A stretch of 64,000 nucleotides of DNA from Aureispira anguillae (lineage in GTDB: Bacteria > Bacteroidota > Bacteroidia > Chitinophagales > Saprospiraceae). The notes beneath the pieces are model-generated. The model was given only the letters and a program-made list of their open reading frames with translations, was not told where the DNA came from and made no database searches. A program made the translations under genes and the position numbers. The stretch lies in assembly GCF_026000115.1 (NCBI RefSeq), contig NZ_AP026867.1, forward strand, positions 2,777,716 through 2,841,715. Direction: 5' to 3'. Below are positions 1-12,218 of this stretch, one piece after another. Each line of letters starts with the position of its first letter. Positions within the stretch are counted from its first letter, which is position 1.

Positions 1-3000
1 GAAAAAGCAAACATCCTACAACATTGGTTAGCAGGCGGTGAGCCTAGCAATACTGGTGACCATATTGTTATTGGTCTAGCTAGTTACACTGGTGTTGTTA
101 AATTTGGTTTTTATGCTGCTTCTTCGGTTTCTAACACAGACAACGATGTGTTTATTGACAATTTCTTAGTTACAAACCTTGCTAGCTGTGCTGCTCCTTC
201 TGCTTTAACAGCTTCTAATATCACTACGACTACTGCTGATTTAGCTTGGACAGAAAATGGTACGGCTACTTCTTGGCAAATTGAATATGGTGCACCAGGC
301 TTTACACAAGGTACAGGTACTACTGCTCTTGCTGGAAGCAACCCTCATAACCAAACAGGTTTGATGCCTAGCAGCGATTATCAATTTTATGTTAGAGCGA
401 TTTGTGGTGCTGGTGATACAAGCTCATGGGCTGGTCCATTTAACTTCCAAACGGCTTGTGGTGCTATTGTTGCCCCATGGACTGAATCATTTAGTGGTGG
501 TTTGCCCAACTGTTGGACAGACAGAGGAAACGACGCTTATATCTTTAATACAAGTGCTGCTTATGGTGCTGCTGTTGCTGGTGATTATACCGCTGGTGGA
601 GGTACCAACTATGCATGGGTTGACGGTTCTGGTGCTACTGGAACATTTGATACCTTAACAACTCCTCTGATTGATATTTCGGGACTAGCTACACCGCACT
701 TGTGCTTTGGTTTGTTTAGTAACAACACCAATGATGCAGGCAACAACACCATTATGATCGAATTCTTTGATGGTGCTGCTTGGAATCTATTGGCTACGTT
801 CCAACAAAACTTAGGTCCAGCATGGGCTCCACTTAGCTACGATCTTTCTAGCTATACAGTTACAGGTAATACACAAGTAAGATTTATTATCAATACCAAT
901 TCTACAGGTGATGCTTACTACAACGATATTCTAATTGATGATGTCAGCATGAACAATGGAGGTTGTCCTCAGTTCTGTATTGCTCCATCTGCTTTAGGTA
1001 TTGCCAATTTGCTTCAAACTACTGTAGATTTAAATTGGACAGAAAATGGTGCTGCTACTTCTTGGCAAGTAGAATATGGTGCTCAAGGTTTTGCTCAAGG
1101 TTCTGGTACGGCTGTTGTTACAGCGACCAATCCACATAGCTTGACGGGTCTAACCGATAATACTTCTTATGATTTTTATGTTAGAGCGATTTGCGGTGCT
1201 GGTGACTCTAGTTTGTGGGTAGGACCATTTAACTTTACTACACTAGCAAACTGTCCTCTACCGTCTGCTTTAACAGCAACGAATATTACTCCTACTTCTG
1301 CTGATTTAGGTTGGACAGAAAATGGTACCGCTACTTCTTGGCAAGTAGAATATGGTACACAAGGCTTTGCTCAAGGTTCTGGTACTGCTGTTGTTACTGG
1401 AAACAACCCTGAGAACATTACCGCTCTAGCTTCTAATACCAACTATAGCTTTTATGTAAGAGCAATTTGTGGTGCTGGTGATTCTAGTGCTTGGGTTGGG
1501 CCATTTAACTTTGCTACTCCTTGTGCTTTAGTTCCTGGTGATACTCCTGACGATGCGATTATGGTAACTAGCCTTCCATACAGCACAACAGGTAAAACGG
1601 ATTCTTGCTATATGGATTCTAGAGGAAATGCCAGTGCTGATGTTTGGTATCAATATATTCTTGCTCCATGTACCGATTCTTTGACCGTTTCTTTGTGTGG
1701 TTCTGCTTTTGATACTTACCTACGTATTTTTGCAAGCGATACGACCACTCAGATCTTTGCCAACGATGACAATTGTAGCACCCAATCTGAAATTGTAATT
1801 GATGTTACGGCTTCATCGACTATCAACTCTGGTGATACCATCTTTATTTTGGTAGAAGGATACAGTAGTAACGAAGGGGCTTACAACTTGAATATTTCAG
1901 ATGTTATCCAATGTCCTCCTGTTCCTGCTCCACCTTACTACCACATCGACCAAATCAACTCGGTTGATACCAATGGTGTTGCAGATTCTTTAGGCGTAAT
2001 TGCTAGAGTTAGAGGAGTTGTACACTGTATCGATTTTAGAGCAGGTACTGGACTAGAGTTCTTCCTTGCTGAATATAACAATACAGGTATCAAAGTATTT
2101 GATTTTGCTGATGTAAACGGTTATGCTGTTACAGAAGGCGATTCTTTAGAAGTATGGGGAACCGTTAGTCAATTTAATGGGCACTTGCAATTTGATCCTG
2201 ACAGCATTATTGTTGTTTCTTCAGGAAACCCACTAGTAATGCCAACTACTGTTAGTCAGTTGAGCGAAGCAACAGAAAACAAATTTGTAGACTTCCAAAA
2301 TGCATGGTTAGTAGATCCTGCACAATGGACTGGTTCTGGTTCTGGATTTAATGTAGATGTTACCAATGGTACCGATACTATTGTTGTACGTGTTGACAAT
2401 GCGACCAACTTGTATGCTCAACCAGCACCAACAGGAATGTTTAACATTTCAGGATGGGGCGGTCAGTATGATACCTCTGTTCCTCGCACAGAAGGCTATC
2501 AGTTGTTCCCTTGTGGAATAGCTTCTGTTATGCCAATTGTTATGGACGTAGCAGTAACATCGTTCTTGAACTTAGATTCTACTTATTGTAATGTAGCAGC
2601 TATCTCTGGTTCTGTTATTATTACCAATATGACTTCTAGTGTTGCTACCGACATACCTTATTCAATTACAGCCAATGGTCTTCCATTGAGTGTAGATACG
2701 ATTGCTTCCTTAGCAGGAAATGCGTCTGATACCATCACTGTTGGTCCTATCCCTGCTCTTACTGGAACGGCTTTAGTTCAAGTAACCACTGCTTTGGCAG
2801 GCGATACATCTACTGTTAATGACACCTTAGGAATGATTGTTTCTGTATCGAATACTGCTGCTGCTGCAAGCGCAACAACTACACTTTTGTGTAATGGAGA
2901 TGCTAATGGAATTATTACAGCTACTGGTTCTAATGGTATTGGCAACTATACCTACGCATGGGATTCTACCGCAACAACTGCTGTTCACTCTAACTTAACT

Positions 3001-3795
3001 GCTGGTACCTATACGGTTACAATCACAGATTCTATTGGTTGTTCAGATACTGCTACTGTTATCTTAACAGAGCCTTCAGCTATTGTATTGACGGATTCAA
3101 TTACTAACGTATTGTGTAAAGGTGATTCTACAGGTGCGATCACCCTCGCTGCTACTGGCGGAACTCCTTCTTATACTTTTGCTTGGAGTACTGGTGATAC
3201 CAGCACATCTGCAATGAATCTAGGAGCTGGCACTTATACAATTACCGTTACAGATGCCAATGGTTGTGTAGATAGCATAGCTGCTACTGTTACTCAACCT
3301 GCTACCGCTCTTAATGCATCAATTGTAGACAATGGAGATGGTACGGCTGTTGCTGTTGGTACAGGAGGAACACCTTCTTATACCTTTGCTTGGGATGCTG
3401 CTGCTGGTAACCAAACTACTGATACGGCTACTGCTTTGGTACATAATGGTACTTATGTTGTGACAATTACAGATGCCAATGGTTGTACAGACACTTCTTC
3501 TGTGGTTATTAACTTCATTGGTGTTCAAACCATTGCTAACCTTTCTAGCCTTAACCTATTCCCTAATCCAACTGCTCATAATGCATTTGTAGCGTTGGAT
3601 TTGGTAGAACAAGCTGAGGTTCAGATCAACATCATCAATTCTATTGGTCAAGTTGTTGAAAGCAAAAACTTGGGTACGGTACAATCTGAAACCGTAGAAC
3701 TAAATACTGCTGCTTTGGCTTCTGGTATTTATATGGTTCAATTTAACATTGGACAAGAACAAGTCACTAGAAAGCTTATTATAAGCAAACAATAA
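1..3795 (+). CDS. Giant secreted adhesin-like T9SS cargo protein, 5'-truncated at the window edge (frame open from nt 1). Four FN3-like repeats, a MAM-like domain, SprB-type repeats and a T9SS C-terminal sorting domain.
   Basis: No stop in frame 1 from nt 1 up to the annotated ATG at 148. Repeated 'TENGTATSWQ[IV]EYG...FYVRAICGAGD' modules (FN3-like). 'YYNDILIDDVSM' MAM/LamG-like segment. Repeats 'CNGDANGIITATGSNGIGNYTYAWD', 'TVTITDSIGC' (SprB/CHU-type). C-terminus 'LFPNPTAHNAFVALDL...GIYMVQFNIGQEQVTRKLIISKQ' is typical of a T9SS type-A CTD. Confidence 0.8.
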   Translation, partial: EKANILQHWLAGGEPSNTGDHIVIGLASYTGVVKFGFYAASSVSNTDNDVFIDNFLVTNLASCAAPSALTASNITTTTADLAWTENGTATSWQIEYGAPGFTQGTGTTALAGSNPHNQTGLMPSSDYQFYVRAICGAGDTSSWAGPFNFQTACGAIVAPWTESFSGGLPNCWTDRGNDAYIFNTSAAYGAAVAGDYTAGGGTNYAWVDGSGATGTFDTLTTPLIDISGLATPHLCFGLFSNNTNDAGNNTIMIEFFDGAAWNLLATFQQNLGPAWAPLSYDLSSYTVTGNTQVRFIINTNSTGDAYYNDILIDDVSMNNGGCPQFCIAPSALGIANLLQTTVDLNWTENGAATSWQVEYGAQGFAQGSGTAVVTATNPHSLTGLTDNTSYDFYVRAICGAGDSSLWVGPFNFTTLANCPLPSALTATNITPTSADLGWTENGTATSWQVEYGTQGFAQGSGTAVVTGNNPENITALASNTNYSFYVRAICGAGDSSAWVGPFNFATPCALVPGDTPDDAIMVTSLPYSTTGKTDSCYMDSRGNASADVWYQYILAPCTDSLTVSLCGSAFDTYLRIFASDTTTQIFANDDNCSTQSEIVIDVTASSTINSGDTIFILVEGYSSNEGAYNLNISDVIQCPPVPAPPYYHIDQINSVDTNGVADSLGVIARVRGVVHCIDFRAGTGLEFFLAEYNNTGIKVFDFADVNGYAVTEGDSLEVWGTVSQFNGHLQFDPDSIIVVSSGNPLVMPTTVSQLSEATENKFVDFQNAWLVDPAQWTGSGSGFNVDVTNGTDTIVVRVDNATNLYAQPAPTGMFNISGWGGQYDTSVPRTEGYQLFPCGIASVMPIVMDVAVTSFLNLDSTYCNVAAISGSVIITNMTSSVATDIPYSITANGLPLSVDTIASLAGNASDTITVGPIPALTGTALVQVTTALAGDTSTVNDTLGMIVSVSNTAAAASATTTLLCNGDANGIITATGSNGIGNYTYAWDSTATTAVHSNLTAGTYTVTITDSIGCSDTATVILTEPSAIVLTDSITNVLCKGDSTGAITLAATGGTPSYTFAWSTGDTSTSAMNLGAGTYTITVTDANGCVDSIAATVTQPATALNASIVDNGDGTAVAVGTGGTPSYTFAWDAAAGNQTTDTATALVHNGTYVVTITDANGCTDTSSVVINFIGVQTIANLSSLNLFPNPTAHNAFVALDLVEQAEVQINIINSIGQVVESKNLGTVQSETVELNTAALASGIYMVQFNIGQEQVTRKLIISKQ

Positions 3796-4123: not shown

Positions 4124-6733
4124 ATGAAAGTCATTTTTACTAGCTGTCTGCTCTTTTTGTTAGCAAGCACATTGACGACTGCCCAAACTGTTTTTTCAGA
4201 AACATTCAATGGCTCAACAACCCCTACTGGATGGACTAATACCGCAACAACAGGAGGTCCTTGGGCATTCAGCACAGGGGCAGGCTATACTGTTTCTACA
4301 ATCCTAGATCACACCAATAATGGTGGTAATTATGCTTGGATTGATTTTTCTGGACCAGATGCTGGGGTTATTTTAGAAACTCCTGTTATTAACGTTTCTA
4401 CACTAACTGTTCCCTATTTAAAGTTTTATTTTGAAAGTCATTATAATGGAAGCCTAGGTACTTACAATTTAATGTACGTAGAAGCATGGGATGGCTCTGC
4501 ATGGGTAACGGTTACCACCCTACAAGGTGATACTGGCTATGGCTGGGATGAGTATGGCTTCAATGTTACTTCTTATGTCTATGGAGGTAGCAACTTAAGA
4601 ATTCGTTTCCGTGGTGAATCTGGAGGTGCTAGCAATGATTATCATAACGACCTTTTGTTAGACGACGTTGAAGTAATGGAAATGCCCACTTGCCCAACGC
4701 CTAATGGTCTATCAGCTGGTAATATCACTGCTACTTCTGCCGATTTTACTTGGACAGAAAATGGTACGGCTACCAACTGGCAAATCGAATATGGTGCTCA
4801 AGGGTTTACTCAGGGTACTGGTACTTCAGTTTTTACTACCAATAACAATCCACACAACCAAACGGGTTTAGCTTCAAGTACAACATTTGACTTGTATGTT
4901 CGTTCCGTTTGTTCTCCTGGTGATACTAGTGCATGGTTTGGTCCTGTTAATTTCACAACGGCTTGTGCTGTAGCTGTAGCTCCATGGTCTGAAAACTTCT
5001 TTGGAGGTAGTACCCCAAACTGTTGGACAGAATCTGGTTCAGAATCTTGGCGCTATAGTACAAATTCAGGATACGCTTCTGCTTCTGCTGGTGACCATAC
5101 TGGCAATGGTGGTAACTATGCTTGGATTGATGGATCTTCTCCTAGTGGTGCTTCTCAAATCAGTACATTAACAAGTCCCCCTGTTGATGTTAGTGGTTTA
5201 GCAGTTCCTTTGCTTTCTTACTGGGTTTTTTCTCATAATCCTGATGACAACACCTATAATACCCTAACGGTTGAAGTTTATGACGGTGCAGCATGGAGTA
5301 CGGTTAATACAGTTAACACGGATCAAGGAAATGGCTGGGTTAATATGATTGTTGGGCTACAGAATTTAACTATAACTGGTCCTGTACAAGTTCGTTTTAC
5401 TATTGCAGAAAACTCTCCAGGTACTGCTTTTTACAATGATATTTTGATTGATGATGTAGAAATCAAAGATGCTCCTAATGTTTCTGCTGATACTTTACTT
5501 GGGCTACAAACACTTTATTGTAGTGCGGCAGTTAATGTAGATTTAGTTATTCGCAACAAATCTGGTAATGCTGAAAATGATGTTCCATGGGCTGTTGAGT
5601 CTAACGGAATGATCATTGCGAGTGGATCTATTGCTACCATGGCTCCTAATAGTGCAGACACAATTCCTTTATTGTTAGGTGGCGTTGGTCCTGCTGGTCC
5701 TAATGCAGTTATTACAGCTTATACTTATTTAGCAGCTGATCAAACCTCTTCGGACGATACATTAACGGCTAGTGTTGGAATGTCTTATACAGGTGTTAAT
5801 GCCAATGTAACCAACCCTGTTGGATGTACTGGTAGCGCCAATGGACAAATTGTATCTGCTGGACATAGCGGAATAGGTGCTTATACTTATTTGTGGGATG
5901 CTGCTGCTGGTAGCCAAACTTCTAGTACGGCATCTGGTTTAGCCGCTGGTACTTATACCCTAACTGTTACAGATTCTATTGGTTGTTCTTCTGTTGCTAC
6001 ACTAACTCTAATAGATCCTCCAACAATGTCATTGAATAGCTCTAGCACAGATCTAACTTGTAATGGGAATAATAGCGGAACAGCTAACGTTACTGCTACA
6101 GGTGGTGTTCCTGGTTATGCTTACCTATGGTCTAATGGTCAAATGAGTAGCCAATTAATGAATGCTGCTGCTGGCACTTATATGGTAACGGTAACCGATG
6201 CCAATGGTTGTGAAATGACCGACTCTGTTACACTAACTGAGCCTACTGTTTTTGGAGCAACTGTTATTGACAATTCTGATGGAACTGCTACAGCTAGTGC
6301 AACTGGAGGAGTAGCTCCTTACACTTATCAATGGGGACCCAATGCAGGCAATCAAACAGGTGCTACAGCTTCTGGTTTGACAACTGGTGGTGTTTACTAT
6401 GTAGTTGTTACAGATGCCAATGGCTGTACAGATGTTGTTTCTTTCCAAGCAATTGTTCTTGATGTAGAAACAATCAATGCAAATACTAACATAAGCATGT
6501 ATCCTAACCCTAGTAGCGGTAATGTTTTTGTTGAATTGAATTTAGTGGAAACCAATGACGTTATCATTAGCATCACTAATGTAACAGGTCAAGTTGTTAT
6601 GACACACCAATTGGGGCAAACTAATTCTAACAAAGTTGAATTAGAAACTACGTCTTTACCAACTGGTATCTACATGGTTCAATTTAATGTAGGTTCTGAG
6701 CAAATAACCAAGAAATTAATTCTTACGAAATAA
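4124..6733 (+). CDS. Secreted adhesin-like T9SS cargo protein, paralog of the previous gene (two MAM-like domains, one FN3, SprB-type repeats, T9SS CTD)
   Basis: Signal peptide 'MKVIFTSCLLFLLASTLTTAQT' at an internal Met (the track ORF starts at 3992, but the signal peptide argues for 4124). 'TENGTATNWQIEYGAQGF', 'FYNDILIDDVEI', 'CTGSANGQIVSAGHSGIGAYTYLWD'. C-terminus 'MYPNPSSGNVFVELNL...GIYMVQFNVGSEQITKKLILTK'. Confidence 0.8.
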   Translation: MKVIFTSCLLFLLASTLTTAQTVFSETFNGSTTPTGWTNTATTGGPWAFSTGAGYTVSTILDHTNNGGNYAWIDFSGPDAGVILETPVINVSTLTVPYLKFYFESHYNGSLGTYNLMYVEAWDGSAWVTVTTLQGDTGYGWDEYGFNVTSYVYGGSNLRIRFRGESGGASNDYHNDLLLDDVEVMEMPTCPTPNGLSAGNITATSADFTWTENGTATNWQIEYGAQGFTQGTGTSVFTTNNNPHNQTGLASSTTFDLYVRSVCSPGDTSAWFGPVNFTTACAVAVAPWSENFFGGSTPNCWTESGSESWRYSTNSGYASASAGDHTGNGGNYAWIDGSSPSGASQISTLTSPPVDVSGLAVPLLSYWVFSHNPDDNTYNTLTVEVYDGAAWSTVNTVNTDQGNGWVNMIVGLQNLTITGPVQVRFTIAENSPGTAFYNDILIDDVEIKDAPNVSADTLLGLQTLYCSAAVNVDLVIRNKSGNAENDVPWAVESNGMIIASGSIATMAPNSADTIPLLLGGVGPAGPNAVITAYTYLAADQTSSDDTLTASVGMSYTGVNANVTNPVGCTGSANGQIVSAGHSGIGAYTYLWDAAAGSQTSSTASGLAAGTYTLTVTDSIGCSSVATLTLIDPPTMSLNSSSTDLTCNGNNSGTANVTATGGVPGYAYLWSNGQMSSQLMNAAAGTYMVTVTDANGCEMTDSVTLTEPTVFGATVIDNSDGTATASATGGVAPYTYQWGPNAGNQTGATASGLTTGGVYYVVVTDANGCTDVVSFQAIVLDVETINANTNISMYPNPSSGNVFVELNLVETNDVIISITNVTGQVVMTHQLGQTNSNKVELETTSLPTGIYMVQFNVGSEQITKKLILTK

Positions 6734-6772
6734 ATTCAATTGCTATTTGTACAATAGCAGATCATACGATAA

Positions 6773-6808
6773 AAACCATTCAAGCTTACGCTTGGATGGT
6801 TTTTTTTT
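6773..6808 (+). terminator. Rho-independent terminator after the second adhesin gene
   Basis: AAACCATTCAAGC ttacg CTTGGATGGTTT stem then TTTTTTTT. Confidence 0.65.
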
Positions 6809-6825
6809 GCCTGATTGGTGACGAC

Positions 6826-6972
6826 CAAAAACAAACGAGCCAATGATGAATGATCACCATTGGCTCGTTTTAATAAAAAAGGAGCAGAAATACACCAGCT
6901 GCTACAACCACCTACCCTTGCTTGCTTTCACACCTGGGGGATTTAATGGGAGCTTGCCATGTATCTCCAACT
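6826..6972 (-). ncRNA. Candidate small RNA, copy A (minus strand): -7 promoter box, ~145-nt body, intrinsic terminator hairpin
   Basis: Minus strand reads ...TTATATTTG (a Bacteroidota TAnnTTTG -7 box at 6980..6987) with a TTG ~22 nt further upstream. The transcript would end in a 13-bp perfect hairpin (AAACGAGCCAATG/CATTGGCTCGTTT, 6833..6880) followed by U-rich sequence. The overlapping + strand ORFs in the two copies are in different frames, so the unit is not coding. Confidence 0.35.
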
Positions 6973-6995
6973 CCGAGTGCAAATATAAGACACTT
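6833..6995. repeat. Copy A of a ~165-bp direct repeat (about 95% identical to copy B)
   Basis: Aligns nearly base-for-base with 7252..7415: 'aaacgagccaatgatgaatgatcaccattggctcgttttaataaaaaaggagcagaaa.acaccagctgctacaaccacctacccttgcttgctttcacacctgggggatttaatgggagcttgccatg.atctccaactccg.gtgcaaatataaga'. Confidence 0.9.
6980..6987 (-). promoter_or_regulatory. Bacteroidota-type -7 promoter element (TATATTTG) for sRNA candidate copy A
   Basis: rc of CAAATATA; conserved in both repeat copies. Confidence 0.35.
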
Positions 6996-7245
6996 TTTCT
7001 ATTTTTGCAATTTCTAATCCTATAATTAGCTTTTTTTTTAATAATAATTTGATTCCCTCTCAAGCTCCATTTCATAAGTAATACACGATCAAGTATTAAG
7101 GCTTTTTTTATTCTGAATTATTTTTTGAAAAAATTTAACTATTTTTCAATCTGGGTAATCTCAGTGCCATTTTACTTCAAACAAACCTCCCTATAACTTC
7201 CGAATATTATCCTTGTTTTCCCTTTTTCTTTCCTTCAAAATTTCT

Positions 7246-7392
7246 AATAAAAAACGAGCCAATGATGAATAATCACCATTGGCTCGTTTTAATAAAAAAG
7301 GAGCAGAAACACACCAGCTGCTACAACCACCTACCCTTGCTTGCTTTCACACCTGGGGGATTTAATGGGAGCTTGCCATGCATCTCCAACTC
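7246..7392 (-). ncRNA. Candidate small RNA, copy B (minus strand)
   Basis: Same architecture as copy A: -7 box TTATATTTG (rc at 7399..7406), hairpin 7252..7289, followed on the minus strand by TTTTTTATT. Confidence 0.35.
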
Positions 7393-7415
7393 CGTGTGCA
7401 AATATAAGATGCTTT
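7252..7415. repeat. Copy B of the ~165-bp direct repeat
   Basis: See copy A. The two copies start 419 bp apart, in the intergenic region between convergent genes. Confidence 0.9.
7399..7406 (-). promoter_or_regulatory. Bacteroidota-type -7 promoter element (TATATTTG) for sRNA candidate copy B
   Basis: rc of CAAATATA; conserved in both repeat copies. Confidence 0.35.
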
Positions 7416-7677
7416 TTCCATTCTAACAAGCTTTCTCCAAAAATAAATTCCTTCCTTTTTACAAGACATTGGCTATCAATATTTATTTTTTTATTTTTTC
7501 TTAAAATTATTTTTCAATTATAATTCAAAGACTTTTTTTCCCATTTATGATAAAATGGAATCGTTTTTTGCTCCTAAACTTAAAGTCTATTTCTTCTATT
7601 TTTTCTAAGGTGTGGCTTTCCCTTTTTAGACTCAAAGTTGATAGAACTATTTTATAAATGCAGTTGTAGTCTTAATC

Positions 7678-8454
7678 TTAAAAAGTTACTCCTAGTCTTA
7701 ATGACAATGCATAAATAGAATTTAGACCAAGTCCTCTATCCTGGATTGTGCAACCAACGTCCATTGTCAAATGGCATTTTTTGGTAGATGGAAAACGGAC
7801 ACCTAAAGATGGACGAGCATAAAAACCTCCTGTTTGATTTCCCCCTGCCCAAAAGTTACCTCCAAGTAAAAAACCATAGCCAATATTTACGTCGTAATAC
7901 ATGCTTGCAGACCCTTTGAAAAAATACCCCCGAACATTGGCATAGGCTGGCATATAAAGCTCGTAAGCTGGTACATTAAAACCAATTCCTGCTCCCACAC
8001 TCAGTAATCTATGAAATTGATAACCGACTACATAGTCAAGACTCAATCCAGAAGGAAGCCCCCCTGATGCACCTAAAAAACGCTCGTTGGAGAACATCAG
8101 CCCTCCCATAATAGAATGGTATATTCCTTTATCTTTTACATGCAATGGGCGTTTTGAATGGATAGTTTTAGTTTTATCGCTCTCCTTTACTTTCTCTTTC
8201 TCTATTTTTATAACCTCTGAGCTATTATAAACTAATATGCTTCCTCCTAAGATTCTAATCTTAATTGTCTTTTTGGGATCATACTCCAAAACTTCTCCTC
8301 GTACAATTTCACCATTTTCCAGATGTACAACATCCTTCATTTCGCTTTGGGCAGACAAATCCAATGCAACCAACAAAGCAAAGCTAAAAATTAACAAGAA
8401 TCGATATATCATTTGTTTTAATTTTTGTGATTGGTCAATAAAAAAGGCAGACAA
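7678..8454 (-). CDS. Small outer-membrane beta-barrel protein with a conserved N-terminal periplasmic domain (tandem paralog 1)
   Basis: Signal peptide. N-terminal domain 'DVVHLENGEIVRGEVLEYDPKKTIKIRILGGSILVYNSSEVIKIEKE'. Glycine/aromatic-rich alternating strands. C-terminal 'LRLGVTF', the terminal Phe typical of an OMP. Confidence 0.65.
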   Translation of the reverse strand: MSAFFIDQSQKLKQMIYRFLLIFSFALLVALDLSAQSEMKDVVHLENGEIVRGEVLEYDPKKTIKIRILGGSILVYNSSEVIKIEKEKVKESDKTKTIHSKRPLHVKDKGIYHSIMGGLMFSNERFLGASGGLPSGLSLDYVVGYQFHRLLSVGAGIGFNVPAYELYMPAYANVRGYFFKGSASMYYDVNIGYGFLLGGNFWAGGNQTGGFYARPSLGVRFPSTKKCHLTMDVGCTIQDRGLGLNSIYALSLRLGVTF

Positions 8455-8498
8455 CCTTGCCTACCCATTATTTTATCTTGTATAAAAGAACAGAGCAA

Positions 8499-9290
8499 CT
8501 AGAAAGTTATCCCTACCCGTAACGAAGGTCTATAAAAAGTTCTTTTTTCGAAAATTGGGTTATTGTTCCAATCTATATATTCATACTCACCAAACTGAAT
8601 TACATAACCAAAATTCAGAAAAACATGAGTTCTTTTGTAAGAAGGAAAACGGACTCCAATAGACGGTCTTAGATACAAACCACCCTTTGCCGTCTGTAAG
8701 TTTCCAATACCACCAAATCCAAACATTTGATCCTTTACGGCAATTCCATATCCTACATCAATTTGGTAGAATAGACTCGCAGAAGATTTCATAAAGTTTC
8801 CTCGGATATTTGCATAAACAGGTACAAAACTATAGCCTCCAAGCCTCATAACTCCGACCCCTCCACCAAGGCCTATTAGGCGATGAAAATGCCAACCAGT
8901 TGTTGTGTTTAAGCTAATTCCTGGTTCAGGAGATCCCCAATCTGAGATTCCCATTAATGTTCCTCCTGCAACAGTATGGTATAAACCGATCCCTGGTCTG
9001 TGGTTGGTACGATCCTTTTTAGCTGTTTTAGAATGGCGAGGAGTTGTATTCTGACTGGCTTCTTTTTCTATTTTAATCACCTTTGAACTCTCATAGACCA
9101 AAACACTCCCCCCATAAATCTTAATCTTAATATTTCCTTTAGGGTCATACTCCATAACCTGTCCTCGTATCACACTCCCATTCTCCAAATAAACAACATC
9201 ATCTTGCGCTTCTTGAGCCCAGCTAACTGTTGTCATCAAACAGATAACAATTAAACTTATCAACCAATTGCTCAATTTATTTTGATTCAT
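8499..9290 (-). CDS. Small outer-membrane beta-barrel protein (tandem paralog 2)
   Basis: 'DVVYLENGSVIRGQVMEYDPKGNIKIKIYGGSVLVYESSKVIKIEKE', ends 'LRVGITF'. Clear paralog of 7678..8454. Confidence 0.65.
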   Translation of the reverse strand: MNQNKLSNWLISLIVICLMTTVSWAQEAQDDVVYLENGSVIRGQVMEYDPKGNIKIKIYGGSVLVYESSKVIKIEKEASQNTTPRHSKTAKKDRTNHRPGIGLYHTVAGGTLMGISDWGSPEPGISLNTTTGWHFHRLIGLGGGVGVMRLGGYSFVPVYANIRGNFMKSSASLFYQIDVGYGIAVKDQMFGFGGIGNLQTAKGGLYLRPSIGVRFPSYKRTHVFLNFGYVIQFGEYEYIDWNNNPIFEKRTFYRPSLRVGITF

Positions 9291-9403: not shown

Positions 9404-9410
9404 TAGGGAT

Positions 9411-10709
9411 TTATTTTGCAACAGGTATATGACTTAACACCTGTAAGTTTGAAGGGTCTGATGTATTGTACTGGTGGAATCCATCTTCACCTACTACCAA
9501 AAGAACATTAGCATTTGGAATTGTAATCGCATCATAAGTAGCGATAGAAGCATCGTGGAACAATTGGTTTTGACCGATGTTTTGTTTGTTTGCAACATCA
9601 AATACTTTTAAACCAGCAGAACCATCGCATAGATATAGTTTATCGTTTTCAACACTTAAGCCATGTGGATTATGCATATCCGTAGAACTCACTAAAGAAG
9701 GGTTCAATACGTTAGTAATGTCAATAACATCCAACTGGTTGCTAAACGTTTGGCAATTAGTACCTCCACGCAATGTTACATAAGCAAAGTTACCATCAAC
9801 AAATACAGGATCACAAGCTGTTGCATGCTGAAATTCACTAATGTAAGTAGGATTTTGAGGATTGGTATTGTCATAGATATACATTCCTGTATTACTACCA
9901 ATAAATAATTTATCACCATAAGGGAAAATTGTTTCAATTCCCCAACCCATACCAATGGTAACTTGATTTACAGGAGTAGGATTCTCTGCATTAGTAATAT
10001 CATAGATATTCATATTTTGCTCATCAACAATATAAAGGTTTTGACCATTGATTGCAAAACGAGCCATTGAACCTCCGATACCAATTGCTTCACGTCCTGA
10101 TCCTGCAACAGAAGCAGAAACACCACCTGTATTATTGTTCATATCGACATTGTTCATTGCCATAGGATTATTTTGCATCCCTCCAAACTGTGCATTTTGG
10201 ATAGCTACTTGGTCGTTACATTGTATTTCTTCTGTCACTTCTTCGCTATCGTAAGCAACCAATAAGCCCTCTGCACTACTACCATAACTTGGGAAAGCAT
10301 CTTCTACTCTTTTTTTGAGGCGAACATCTTGAATATTGGATACATCTATTGCCAACAAATCAATGTAGTTATCAGCATAAAGTGTCGTACCACTCATAGC
10401 AATATCAATATTGCCAGGAATAGAGATAAATGCCAACTTATTAGGAGAAGCAGGATTAGCATTATCAATAACATGAACTCCTTCGCCTTTTTCATTAATT
10501 AGAATAAGGTTGCCATATAAATAGATTTTACCTGGATTTTTTAACTCTCTAGCAGGTTCTACAGTAGGATTGACCCGAATCTCATCCAGTGATTTATAAA
10601 TGGGGGTATGTTTTGTGTATGTCATTACTCTTGTGCAGTCATCTTTAGCACAACTAACTAGTAAAAACAACATACAAAATGCGGCAAAAAACACATTCTT
10701 TCTGTACAT
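9411..10709 (-). CDS. LVIVD-repeat-like beta-propeller lipoprotein (paralog 1)
   Basis: Lipoprotein signal 'FLLVSCAKDDC'. Repeated motifs 'NPTYISEFQHATACDPVFVDGNFAYVTLRGG' and 'MHNPHGLSVENDKLYLCDGSAGLKVFDV' resemble LVIVD repeats. Confidence 0.6.
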   Translation of the reverse strand: MYRKNVFFAAFCMLFLLVSCAKDDCTRVMTYTKHTPIYKSLDEIRVNPTVEPARELKNPGKIYLYGNLILINEKGEGVHVIDNANPASPNKLAFISIPGNIDIAMSGTTLYADNYIDLLAIDVSNIQDVRLKKRVEDAFPSYGSSAEGLLVAYDSEEVTEEIQCNDQVAIQNAQFGGMQNNPMAMNNVDMNNNTGGVSASVAGSGREAIGIGGSMARFAINGQNLYIVDEQNMNIYDITNAENPTPVNQVTIGMGWGIETIFPYGDKLFIGSNTGMYIYDNTNPQNPTYISEFQHATACDPVFVDGNFAYVTLRGGTNCQTFSNQLDVIDITNVLNPSLVSSTDMHNPHGLSVENDKLYLCDGSAGLKVFDVANKQNIGQNQLFHDASIATYDAITIPNANVLLVVGEDGFHQYNTSDPSNLQVLSHIPVAK

Positions 10710-11021: not shown

Positions 11022-12218
11022 TTATGCTTCAATTGTAATTTCACTAATACGCTCCAAATTATTAGGATCCATTGCGTCGTACTGGAAGATTCCTTCTTTT
11101 CCGACTACAATCAACGTTCCATTATCCATATTAGGAATCACATCGTAAGCTTTGCGAATATCTCGATCTGCAAATTTTAAGTTGTCTAAAATATTTCTTT
11201 TGTCTGTAACATCAAACACTTTTAAGCCTTGGTTTCCATCGCAAAGAAATAGTGTATTGTTTTGTACACTTAAACCATGTGGGTTGTGCATTTGAAAATT
11301 CTTAACCAAGGTTGGGTTTTTAATATCTGAAATATCAACAACATCCAATTGGTTAATTGCACGGTCACAAGGTCCGCCGCTACGCAATGTTACATAAGCG
11401 TGCTTACCTGATACAACAACAGGATCACAAGCTATGGCATGCTCAAACTTGCTCAAAAAACGAGGATTGGCTGGATCTGAGTTATCATAGATATACATTC
11501 CTTCTGTTCCACCAATAAACAATTGTCCTTCGTGGGGGAAAATAGTTTCTACATTAAAATCCATAGCGATTTCATTCATCTTTTTAGGATTTTCAACATC
11601 TGTAATATCATATACGACCATGTTATTACCATCCAAGACATACAGGCTGTTATCAACAATGGTAAAACGAGCCATTGAACCACCAGCCCCAACAGGATTA
11701 CCAGCACTAGCTGGTGCGCCATGAGAAACAGCTTGGAATTGGGTTCCTTTCATTCCCCCCATTGGTTCAAGACCATTATTCATAGCCAACAATTGTTCTC
11801 TACGTTCTTTTTCAAACACTTTAAAAGCATTCTTTACTCGCTTAATAGCTCCTGTTTTGGTATTCAAAGCCACTAAATCCATGTAGTTATCTGCATAAAT
11901 AACATCTCCTTTTACGGCTACATCTATGTTGCCAGGTATTTTTATAAAACCAACTTTTTTAGGCTCTTGTGGGTTTTCATTAAAAACCATATGAATACCT
12001 TTTCCCATTTCATTGATAAGGATCATATCGTCTTTCACATAAATTTTTCCAGGATTGGTTAACTTACGAGCTTCTTGTAGTTCTATACCTTGCTTACGCA
12101 TTTCATCAGATGTTTTGTAGCTAATCTGATTGTTATTAGCATCTGTATTGGCATCACTACATCCAATTAATAAGGAACTTGCGATTAGTGCTGCTCCAAA
12201 TACAAACATTTTTTTCAT
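11022..12218 (-). CDS. LVIVD-repeat-like beta-propeller lipoprotein (paralog 2)
   Basis: Lipoprotein signal 'LLIGCSDANT'. 'MHNPHGLSVQNNTLFLCDGNQGLKVFDV', 'HAIACDPVVVSGKHAYVTLRSGG'. About 45% identical to 9411..10709. Confidence 0.6.
   Translation of the reverse strand: MKKMFVFGAALIASSLLIGCSDANTDANNNQISYKTSDEMRKQGIELQEARKLTNPGKIYVKDDMILINEMGKGIHMVFNENPQEPKKVGFIKIPGNIDVAVKGDVIYADNYMDLVALNTKTGAIKRVKNAFKVFEKERREQLLAMNNGLEPMGGMKGTQFQAVSHGAPASAGNPVGAGGSMARFTIVDNSLYVLDGNNMVVYDITDVENPKKMNEIAMDFNVETIFPHEGQLFIGGTEGMYIYDNSDPANPRFLSKFEHAIACDPVVVSGKHAYVTLRSGGPCDRAINQLDVVDISDIKNPTLVKNFQMHNPHGLSVQNNTLFLCDGNQGLKVFDVTDKRNILDNLKFADRDIRKAYDVIPNMDNGTLIVVGKEGIFQYDAMDPNNLERISEITIEA

Follow-up and report, generated by a model that had tools for sequence, protein, structure and literature searches.

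The duplicated unit lying between two convergent genes of Aureispira anguillae was identified, with a probability of about 0.93, as two tandem, independently transcribed ffs genes, which encode the SRP RNA of this bacterium. SRP RNA is a universal and well-understood bacterial RNA, and the gene itself belongs to an already known housekeeping RNA; only the second copy is unusual. The window analysed here is a stretch of 64,000 nucleotides, and positions in A. anguillae are counted from its first letter. A repeat search revealed one direct-repeat family, with units at 6827-7010 and 7246-7429, each of 184 nt and 93% identical to one another. The original prediction, made from the letters of the DNA, had described a duplicated unit with starts 419 bp apart between convergent genes, and this was borne out: the start-to-start distance was 419 nt, and both units were contained in the 944-bp gap between the SprB/MAM/T9SS-tail protein gene and the gene for a 258-aa signal-peptide protein (Table 1). 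Position-by-position comparison showed the edges of the unit to be sharp, as 8 of 12 positions beyond 6827 and 9 of 14 beyond 7010 differed, which is approximately random. A 28-nt core of the unit occurred twice in the window and not once in 100 shuffles. The two copies differed at 4 of 149 nt in the core made up of hairpin and RNA as against 6 of 29 nt in the promoter part (Fisher p = 0.0015), and thus the differences avoid the functional core. Local alignment of the inter-copy spacer with the region upstream of copy B (7430-7677) gave a score of 29, dinucleotide shuffles giving 27 ± 4, so that these two regions showed no homology and the detectable repeat is confined to about 184 nt.

Table 1. 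Positions of the tandem SRP RNA genes, their signals and their neighbours in the window, and of the tandem copies in the sister clade.
Feature	Sequence	Position	Strand	Details
SprB/MAM/T9SS-tail protein gene	window	4124-6733	+	real start 4124, stop 6733
Copy A intrinsic terminator	window	6826-6870	-	17-bp hairpin 6870-6833 and T-tract; -27.4 kcal/mol, z -9.1
SRP RNA (ffs / 4.5S-type) copy A, downstream in transcription direction	window	6877-6981	-	RF04183, fold, covariation
Copy A promoter (predicted)	window	6980-7010	-	-33 TTG 7010-7008, 20-nt spacer, -7 box TATATTTG (TAnnTTTG) 6987-6980
AT-rich spacer between gene units	window	7011-7245 (235 nt)	.	without RNA family or conserved ORF
Copy B intrinsic terminator	window	7245-7290	-	18-bp hairpin 7290-7251 and TTTTTTATT; -27.7 kcal/mol, z -10.2
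SRP RNA copy B, upstream in transcription direction	window	7296-7400	-	RF04183
Copy B promoter (predicted)	window	7399-7429	-	-33 TTG 7429-7427, -7 box TATATTTG 7406-7399
258-aa signal-peptide protein gene	window	7678-8454	-	
SRP RNA copies	L019/L020	~8410-8512 and 8888-8990		
SRP RNA copies	L022	9208-9310 and 9874-9976		
SRP RNA copies	L028	3716-3814 and 4144-4242		

The surroundings of the locus contained several other features. Between the stop codon of the SprB/T9SS gene and the copy A terminator, a 15-bp hairpin (6771-6804) with A-runs and T-runs at its sides was present, which looks like a bidirectional intrinsic terminator. Three tandem pairs of paralogues were seen nearby, comprising SprB-repeat/T9SS-tail surface proteins (148-3795 and 4124-6733, plus strand), signal-peptide proteins of about 260 aa without a Pfam match (7678-8454 and 8499-9290, minus strand) and LVIVD beta-propeller proteins (9411-10709 and 11022-12218, minus strand). 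This neighbourhood of tandem paralogue pairs seems prone to tandem duplication. Further away, an 835-aa ORF (30747-33254, minus strand) matched PF11978, the shoulder domain of the major vault protein (3e-28), and the vault repeat PF17795, which makes it a homologue in bacteria of the shell protein of eukaryotic vaults. The genes ffh and ftsY were absent among the 24 larger ORFs of the window that were scanned against Pfam, roughly a dozen ORFs of 150 aa or more lying outside this set.

A minus-strand non-coding RNA gene in two copies had been predicted, and a covariance-model scan of both copies had been proposed as a check. The scan matched each copy to the Rfam family RF04183 (Bacteroidales_small_SRP), thereby confirming the prediction. 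Copy A scored 55.6 bits (E 4.6e-10) over model positions 1-107 on the minus strand, only 0.4 bits above the gathering score of 55.2 bits, and copy B matched at full length on the same strand with 51.1 bits (E 6.5e-9), 4 bits under the gathering score, the model having been made for Bacteroidales and the host being a member of the Saprospiraceae. Other families of the SRP clan (CL00003) also overlapped and were discarded for their lower scores. The local scan covered 6500-7900, where the remaining matches were noise and none fell inside the inter-copy spacer; a second scan covered the whole window at gathering threshold, and copy A, again with 55.6 bits, was its sole RNA family match. Standard Rfam-based annotation therefore recovers at least copy A. 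Since copy B lies just below the gathering score, a pipeline may miss it, and it could be mistaken for a new sRNA.

The minimum free energy fold of each copy was a single long hairpin with an apical GAAA tetraloop. The tetraloop sits on a stem of 3 bp, below which come a symmetric loop of 5x5 (CCAGG / AGCAA), then a short helix and a 4+2 asymmetric internal loop, and finally a long basal helix. In copy A this last helix extends from about 6974 to 6881, with a U-tract after it at 6880-6875. According to the published description of SRP RNA in bacteria (PMC4091067), the two internal loops, one symmetric and one asymmetric, are the binding site of the 54-kDa protein, and the receptor is contacted by the GNRA loop at the apex; the fold found here, with its GNRA tetraloop, 5x5 loop and asymmetric loop, agrees with it. 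The GAAA loop, which in both copies is closed by the pairs U.G, G-C and U-A, was invariant in an alignment of 15 Saprospiraceae sequences, as were the domain IV block CCCCCAGGUGUGAAAGCAAGCAAGGGUAG and the columns of the symmetric and asymmetric loops. RNAalifold on these 15 sequences gave 28 pairs, and compensatory double changes were found in 12 of them, so that both the conservation of the RNA and the compensatory substitutions, on which the original prediction was to be judged, were present in relatives. Helices of an Alu domain, which in large SRP RNAs lie 5' and 3' of the S-domain hairpin within a total length of about 250-280 nt, were absent, as just 6 nt separate the promoter box from the basal helix, the T-tract comes directly after that helix and the RNA is about 98-105 nt long. 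A body of about 145 nt followed by a hairpin had been described earlier; the hairpin does lie downstream of the RNA, and the length has to be corrected to the 98-105 nt of the conserved RNA. Likewise, an internal AGCAG/CUGCU stem that had been pointed out fell outside the conserved fold. The layout of promoter, body and terminator, together with the duplication, resembles that of sibling sRNAs, and the unit had accordingly been taken for a pair of novel trans-acting regulatory sRNAs like Qrr, OmrA/B or GlmY/Z. That proposal did not hold. Both copies are full-length matches to an SRP RNA family, the best sRNA-type match, Qrr, reached 15.7 bits (E 9.9) where the gathering score is 50, the predicted Ffh-binding loops are invariant, the helices covary, and the conserved unpaired bases are those of the SRP domain IV loops. 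Moreover, the copies lie where, by synteny, the locus of each more distant relative has its single SRP RNA match. A regulatory sRNA pair is thus effectively refuted.

Coding on the opposite strand was also considered. Plus-strand ORFs lie over the copies at 6843-7025 (60 aa) and 7262-7426 (54 aa), and a small protein encoded by them would be in line with their identity of about 90% and their common frame relative to the repeat. The ATG, however, falls within the terminator hairpin, which is specific to the lineage, stop codons break the frame in L001, L002, L006, L007, L009, L011, L012, L016 and L017, and the conservation follows the paired helices of the RNA. The antisense ORF was therefore rejected as a coding gene, its frame being broken by stops in most relatives, and the chance that such a protein is made is negligible. 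The original prediction had also argued against coding, on the ground that the ORFs over the two copies are in different frames. Its conclusion stands because of the stops in relatives; the argument from frames does not, since the ORF starts are 419 nt apart and share the same relative frame.

Each copy had been predicted to possess its own -7 box, with a TTG upstream, and its own intrinsic terminator, and all of these were found, the TTG being 20 nt upstream of the box. The promoters were called from the sequence by scanning for the Bacteroidota consensus (-33 TTG, -7 TAnnTTTG). In all the relatives aligned, the basal helix was preceded at a constant distance by the TAnnTTTG box and followed by a T-run. 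On this basis, transcription would start at about 6974 in copy A and about 7393 in copy B. The terminator hairpins, earlier given as 13 bp, actually have 17-18 pairs including one G.U (z = -9 and -10), and the sole difference between the copies in this hairpin sits in its loop. The unit is thus an RNA gene and not the duplicated 3' UTR of a neighbouring gene, which had been named as a finding that would go against the prediction. Upstream of the promoters the copies differ more. Copy B keeps the ancestral AAGCTTG context of the -33 element seen in relatives, which has been lost from the -33 region of copy A. Homology with relatives by blastn reached 7448-7479 upstream of copy B, and upstream of copy A it ended at 6997-7010 in most close relatives and at 7047 in L006. 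A matrix of promoter identities gave no decisive upstream or downstream orthology for the window copies. An A/T motif similar to AATTTATTT was seen at 7445-7455 (minus strand), some 50 nt before the basal helix, and at the same position in L020, L022, L028 and L026. Nearly all Aureispira SRP RNA copies are preceded by this motif, which was degenerate ahead of copy A; an UP-like element is one possible reading of it, and mere ancestral upstream sequence is another.

Within the Rfam-matched RNA, copy B differed from copy A at three positions (7310, 7381 and 7395). The difference at 6976/7395 falls in the unpaired 5' end. Two adjacent pairs of the basal helix, U-A and A-U in copy A, are U.G and G.U in copy B, whereby pairing is kept; on the plus strand these differences read T at 6962 and 6891 in copy A and C at 7381 and 7310 in copy B. 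The same G/G stem variant as in copy B was found in the single-copy gene of the relative L004, and both versions of the stem are therefore compatible with function. As the three differences are all structure-neutral, the two copies are most likely both functional and redundant, so far as can be judged from their sequences. Alternatively, one ffs gene could do the work, the other being a neutral, recent or decaying duplicate without selective value. The loss of the AAGCTTG context in copy A, whose promoter part is unlike that of copy B at 6 of 29 positions, would suit such a state, as would the single match in each of the 16 loci of distant relatives described below. Against it, neither copy has lost its -33 TTG, its -7 box, its fold or its terminator, their RNA differences are neutral for structure, and every sister-clade contig that spans the site (L019/L020, L022, L028) has two copies, which argues for long retention. 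We consider a single working gene unlikely, and favour two functional copies.

Distant relatives were sought by searching the exact domain IV 28-mer in species-representative genomes and in metagenome contigs. This search, which detects the canonical GAAA core only, gave 13 loci in the genomes, all from Saprospiraceae or Aureispira MAGs, and 3 metagenome contigs, with one match at each of these 16 loci; 7 of the 13 genome loci passed the Rfam gathering score. The gene order of the window, with an OMP-like gene, the SRP RNA and a converging SprB/T9SS gene, was also found in Aureispira L003, L004, L005 and L010, each having one SRP RNA match. Since the gene order is common to the window and these relatives, the locus is the orthologue of the ordinary ffs with one extra copy. 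The outgroup L024/L025, with about 69% identity in the LVIVD protein, also had one SRP RNA copy. In L024, an Aureispira-like TARA metagenome contig, the SRP RNA (8195-8292) is followed by an IS200-type Y1 transposase gene (8537-9103), and the SprB/T9SS gene that other relatives have at this position is absent. In a third lineage, P0002, with 79% LVIVD identity, the contigs end short of the SRP locus.

The 28-mer search missed the sister clade of A. anguillae, which was reached through the neighbouring LVIVD protein (9411-10709, minus strand). The closest homologues of this protein are 74-78% identical to it and belong to that clade, whose own LVIVD proteins share 87-91% identity. For L019/L020, L022 and L028, the values are about 76-77% to the window protein and 88% among themselves. 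Each of the sister-clade contigs that span the site had two SRP RNA copies in tandem there (Table 1), and four short-read contigs (L021, L023, L026 and L027) break off inside the upstream copy. The upstream copy of L020 and both copies of L022 read CAGAUGUUAACGCAAGCAAGG, with AGA in place of AGG in the symmetric loop and UAAC as the apical loop. In L028, both copies have UAAC followed by ACA, with the closing pair covarying from U.G to U-A; AGA occurs in the downstream copy only, and the upstream copy keeps AGG. The downstream copy of L020 is canonical (GGAA). Thus L020 has one GNRA and one URRC loop, L022 and L028 have two URRC loops each and A. anguillae has two GNRA loops. URRC is a widespread alternative to the GNRA apical loop in bacterial SRP RNAs (PMC4091067), and UAAC fits it, so that the sister clade shows a known kind of variation. 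UMAC/UNAC loops can take GNRA-like folds (PMC12550061). As a side observation, the inter-copy spacer of L022 carried a nested palindromic insert of about 390 nt (9407-9799), centred on a perfect inverted repeat of 33 bp (9545-9623) that three more arm pairs enclose; the insert resembles a MITE or a long hairpin element.

Near-identical tandem repeats can arise from errors of assembly, and a single ffs might have been falsely doubled in the genome sequence. Two short-read contigs from Logan (run DRR408736), each 100% identical to the window, bear on this possibility. The end of one, at 7351, is 30 nt beyond 7381, the last base specific to copy B, and that of the other, at 6882, is 30 nt beyond 6852, the last base specific to copy A. 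Logan assembly uses k=31. At a repeat present twice, a k=31 de Bruijn graph gives just such contigs, with the variants of one copy on either side and a break exactly k-1 bases into the common stretch, and this speaks against misassembly. The differences between the copies fall at defined positions, the spacer between them is unique sequence, and sister genomes assembled by others show the same arrangement. A short-read contig over the spacer was also sought by way of a spurious ORF (6902-7075), and none was on record. An artefact is hence extremely improbable, and the two copies are taken as real.

Regarding the origin of the pair, tandem duplication of the whole unit of promoter, RNA and terminator in an ancestor shared by A. 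anguillae and the sister clade appears most likely. It is the simplest reading, because the sister clade also has two tandem copies at the same site. The spacers of L020 and L028 are clearly homologous to each other, and the similarity of the window spacer to sister-clade spacers was marginal, its score being reached by 11 of 200 and 6 of 200 shuffles. The terminator hairpins are alike within each genome and differ between lineages, which independent duplications would also explain. Gene conversion acts at this locus, and the duplication, which is probably old and has been retained, bears signs of it. Both L020 copies share a derived GACCTC in the 3' arm of the hairpin; in L022 and L028 a marker tied to position has been kept, the upstream copy reading AATAACAAT and the downstream copy AATAGCAAT. 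A fuller scenario would combine an old duplication of the normally single-copy ffs, retained in an Aureispira subclade under concerted evolution by gene conversion, with this duplication acting in the sister species as a bridge in the change from GNRA to URRC and with selection, rather than chance, keeping the A. anguillae pair for dosage or differential promoter use. We offer this scenario tentatively, as possible rather than probable.

Taken together, these features suggest how the locus may work. A separate promoter of the Bacteroidota type (-33 TTG, -7 TAnnTTTG) would drive minus-strand transcription of each gene. The transcript would begin at about the first G of the basal helix, form a hairpin of about 98 nt and terminate at the U-tract directly after that helix. 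The 17-18-bp terminator hairpin located 10 nt further on could then serve as a backstop, or be part of a precursor that is trimmed. From established knowledge of SRP, the internal loops (CCAGG...AGCAAGG) are expected to bind the M domain of Ffh and the apical GAAA tetraloop to help in recruiting the receptor FtsY, and the particle would bring ribosomes making membrane proteins to SecYEG. Both copies would supply one SRP pool, the second either raising gene dosage or simply persisting, and selection and gene conversion would have kept the copies alike since the duplication.

We found no specific report of duplicated bacterial SRP RNA genes in the literature. The unusual aspect of the locus is the conserved tandem duplication with concerted evolution only, which makes it a modest evolutionary curiosity. 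The mixed, all-URRC and all-GNRA tandem paralogues nevertheless provide a natural example of an essential RNA changing a functionally critical loop, and the tandem ffs pairs, conserved in several Aureispira species, offer a means of asking if URRC loops can stand in for GNRA loops, and the reverse, in FtsY recruitment.

In E. coli, a single ffs gene is present and its RNA is cut by RNase P from a precursor with a 5' leader. In contrast, the predicted start in the window is at the base of the helix, and two genes are arranged in tandem. The motif AGG-3 bp-GNRA-3 bp-AGCA is common to E. coli 4.5S RNA and the RNA described here. E. coli 4.5S RNA likewise consists of the helix 5/8 hairpin only, with a GNRA loop and the Ffh loops and without an Alu domain (cf. 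PMC4091067). The Bacillus subtilis scRNA, of the Bacteria_large_SRP type, has the same SRP function and the same domain IV. It differs in having an Alu domain (the extension of helices 2-5) and a length of about 270 nt, whereas the RNA of the window is a single hairpin of about 100 nt without that domain. The likeness to RF04183 comprises the alignment over model positions 1-107, the basal helix and the CCAGG...AGCAAGGGUA...GGUUGUAGC core. The apical loop of the RF04183 consensus is UGAU, of the URRU type known from some Bacteroidetes SRP RNAs (PMC4091067), as against GAAA, a GNRA loop, in the window copies. The same contrast holds for bacterial SRP RNAs with URRC loops, among which are the UAAC-bearing upstream copy of L020 and both copies of L022 and L028, both copies of A. 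anguillae being of the GNRA type.
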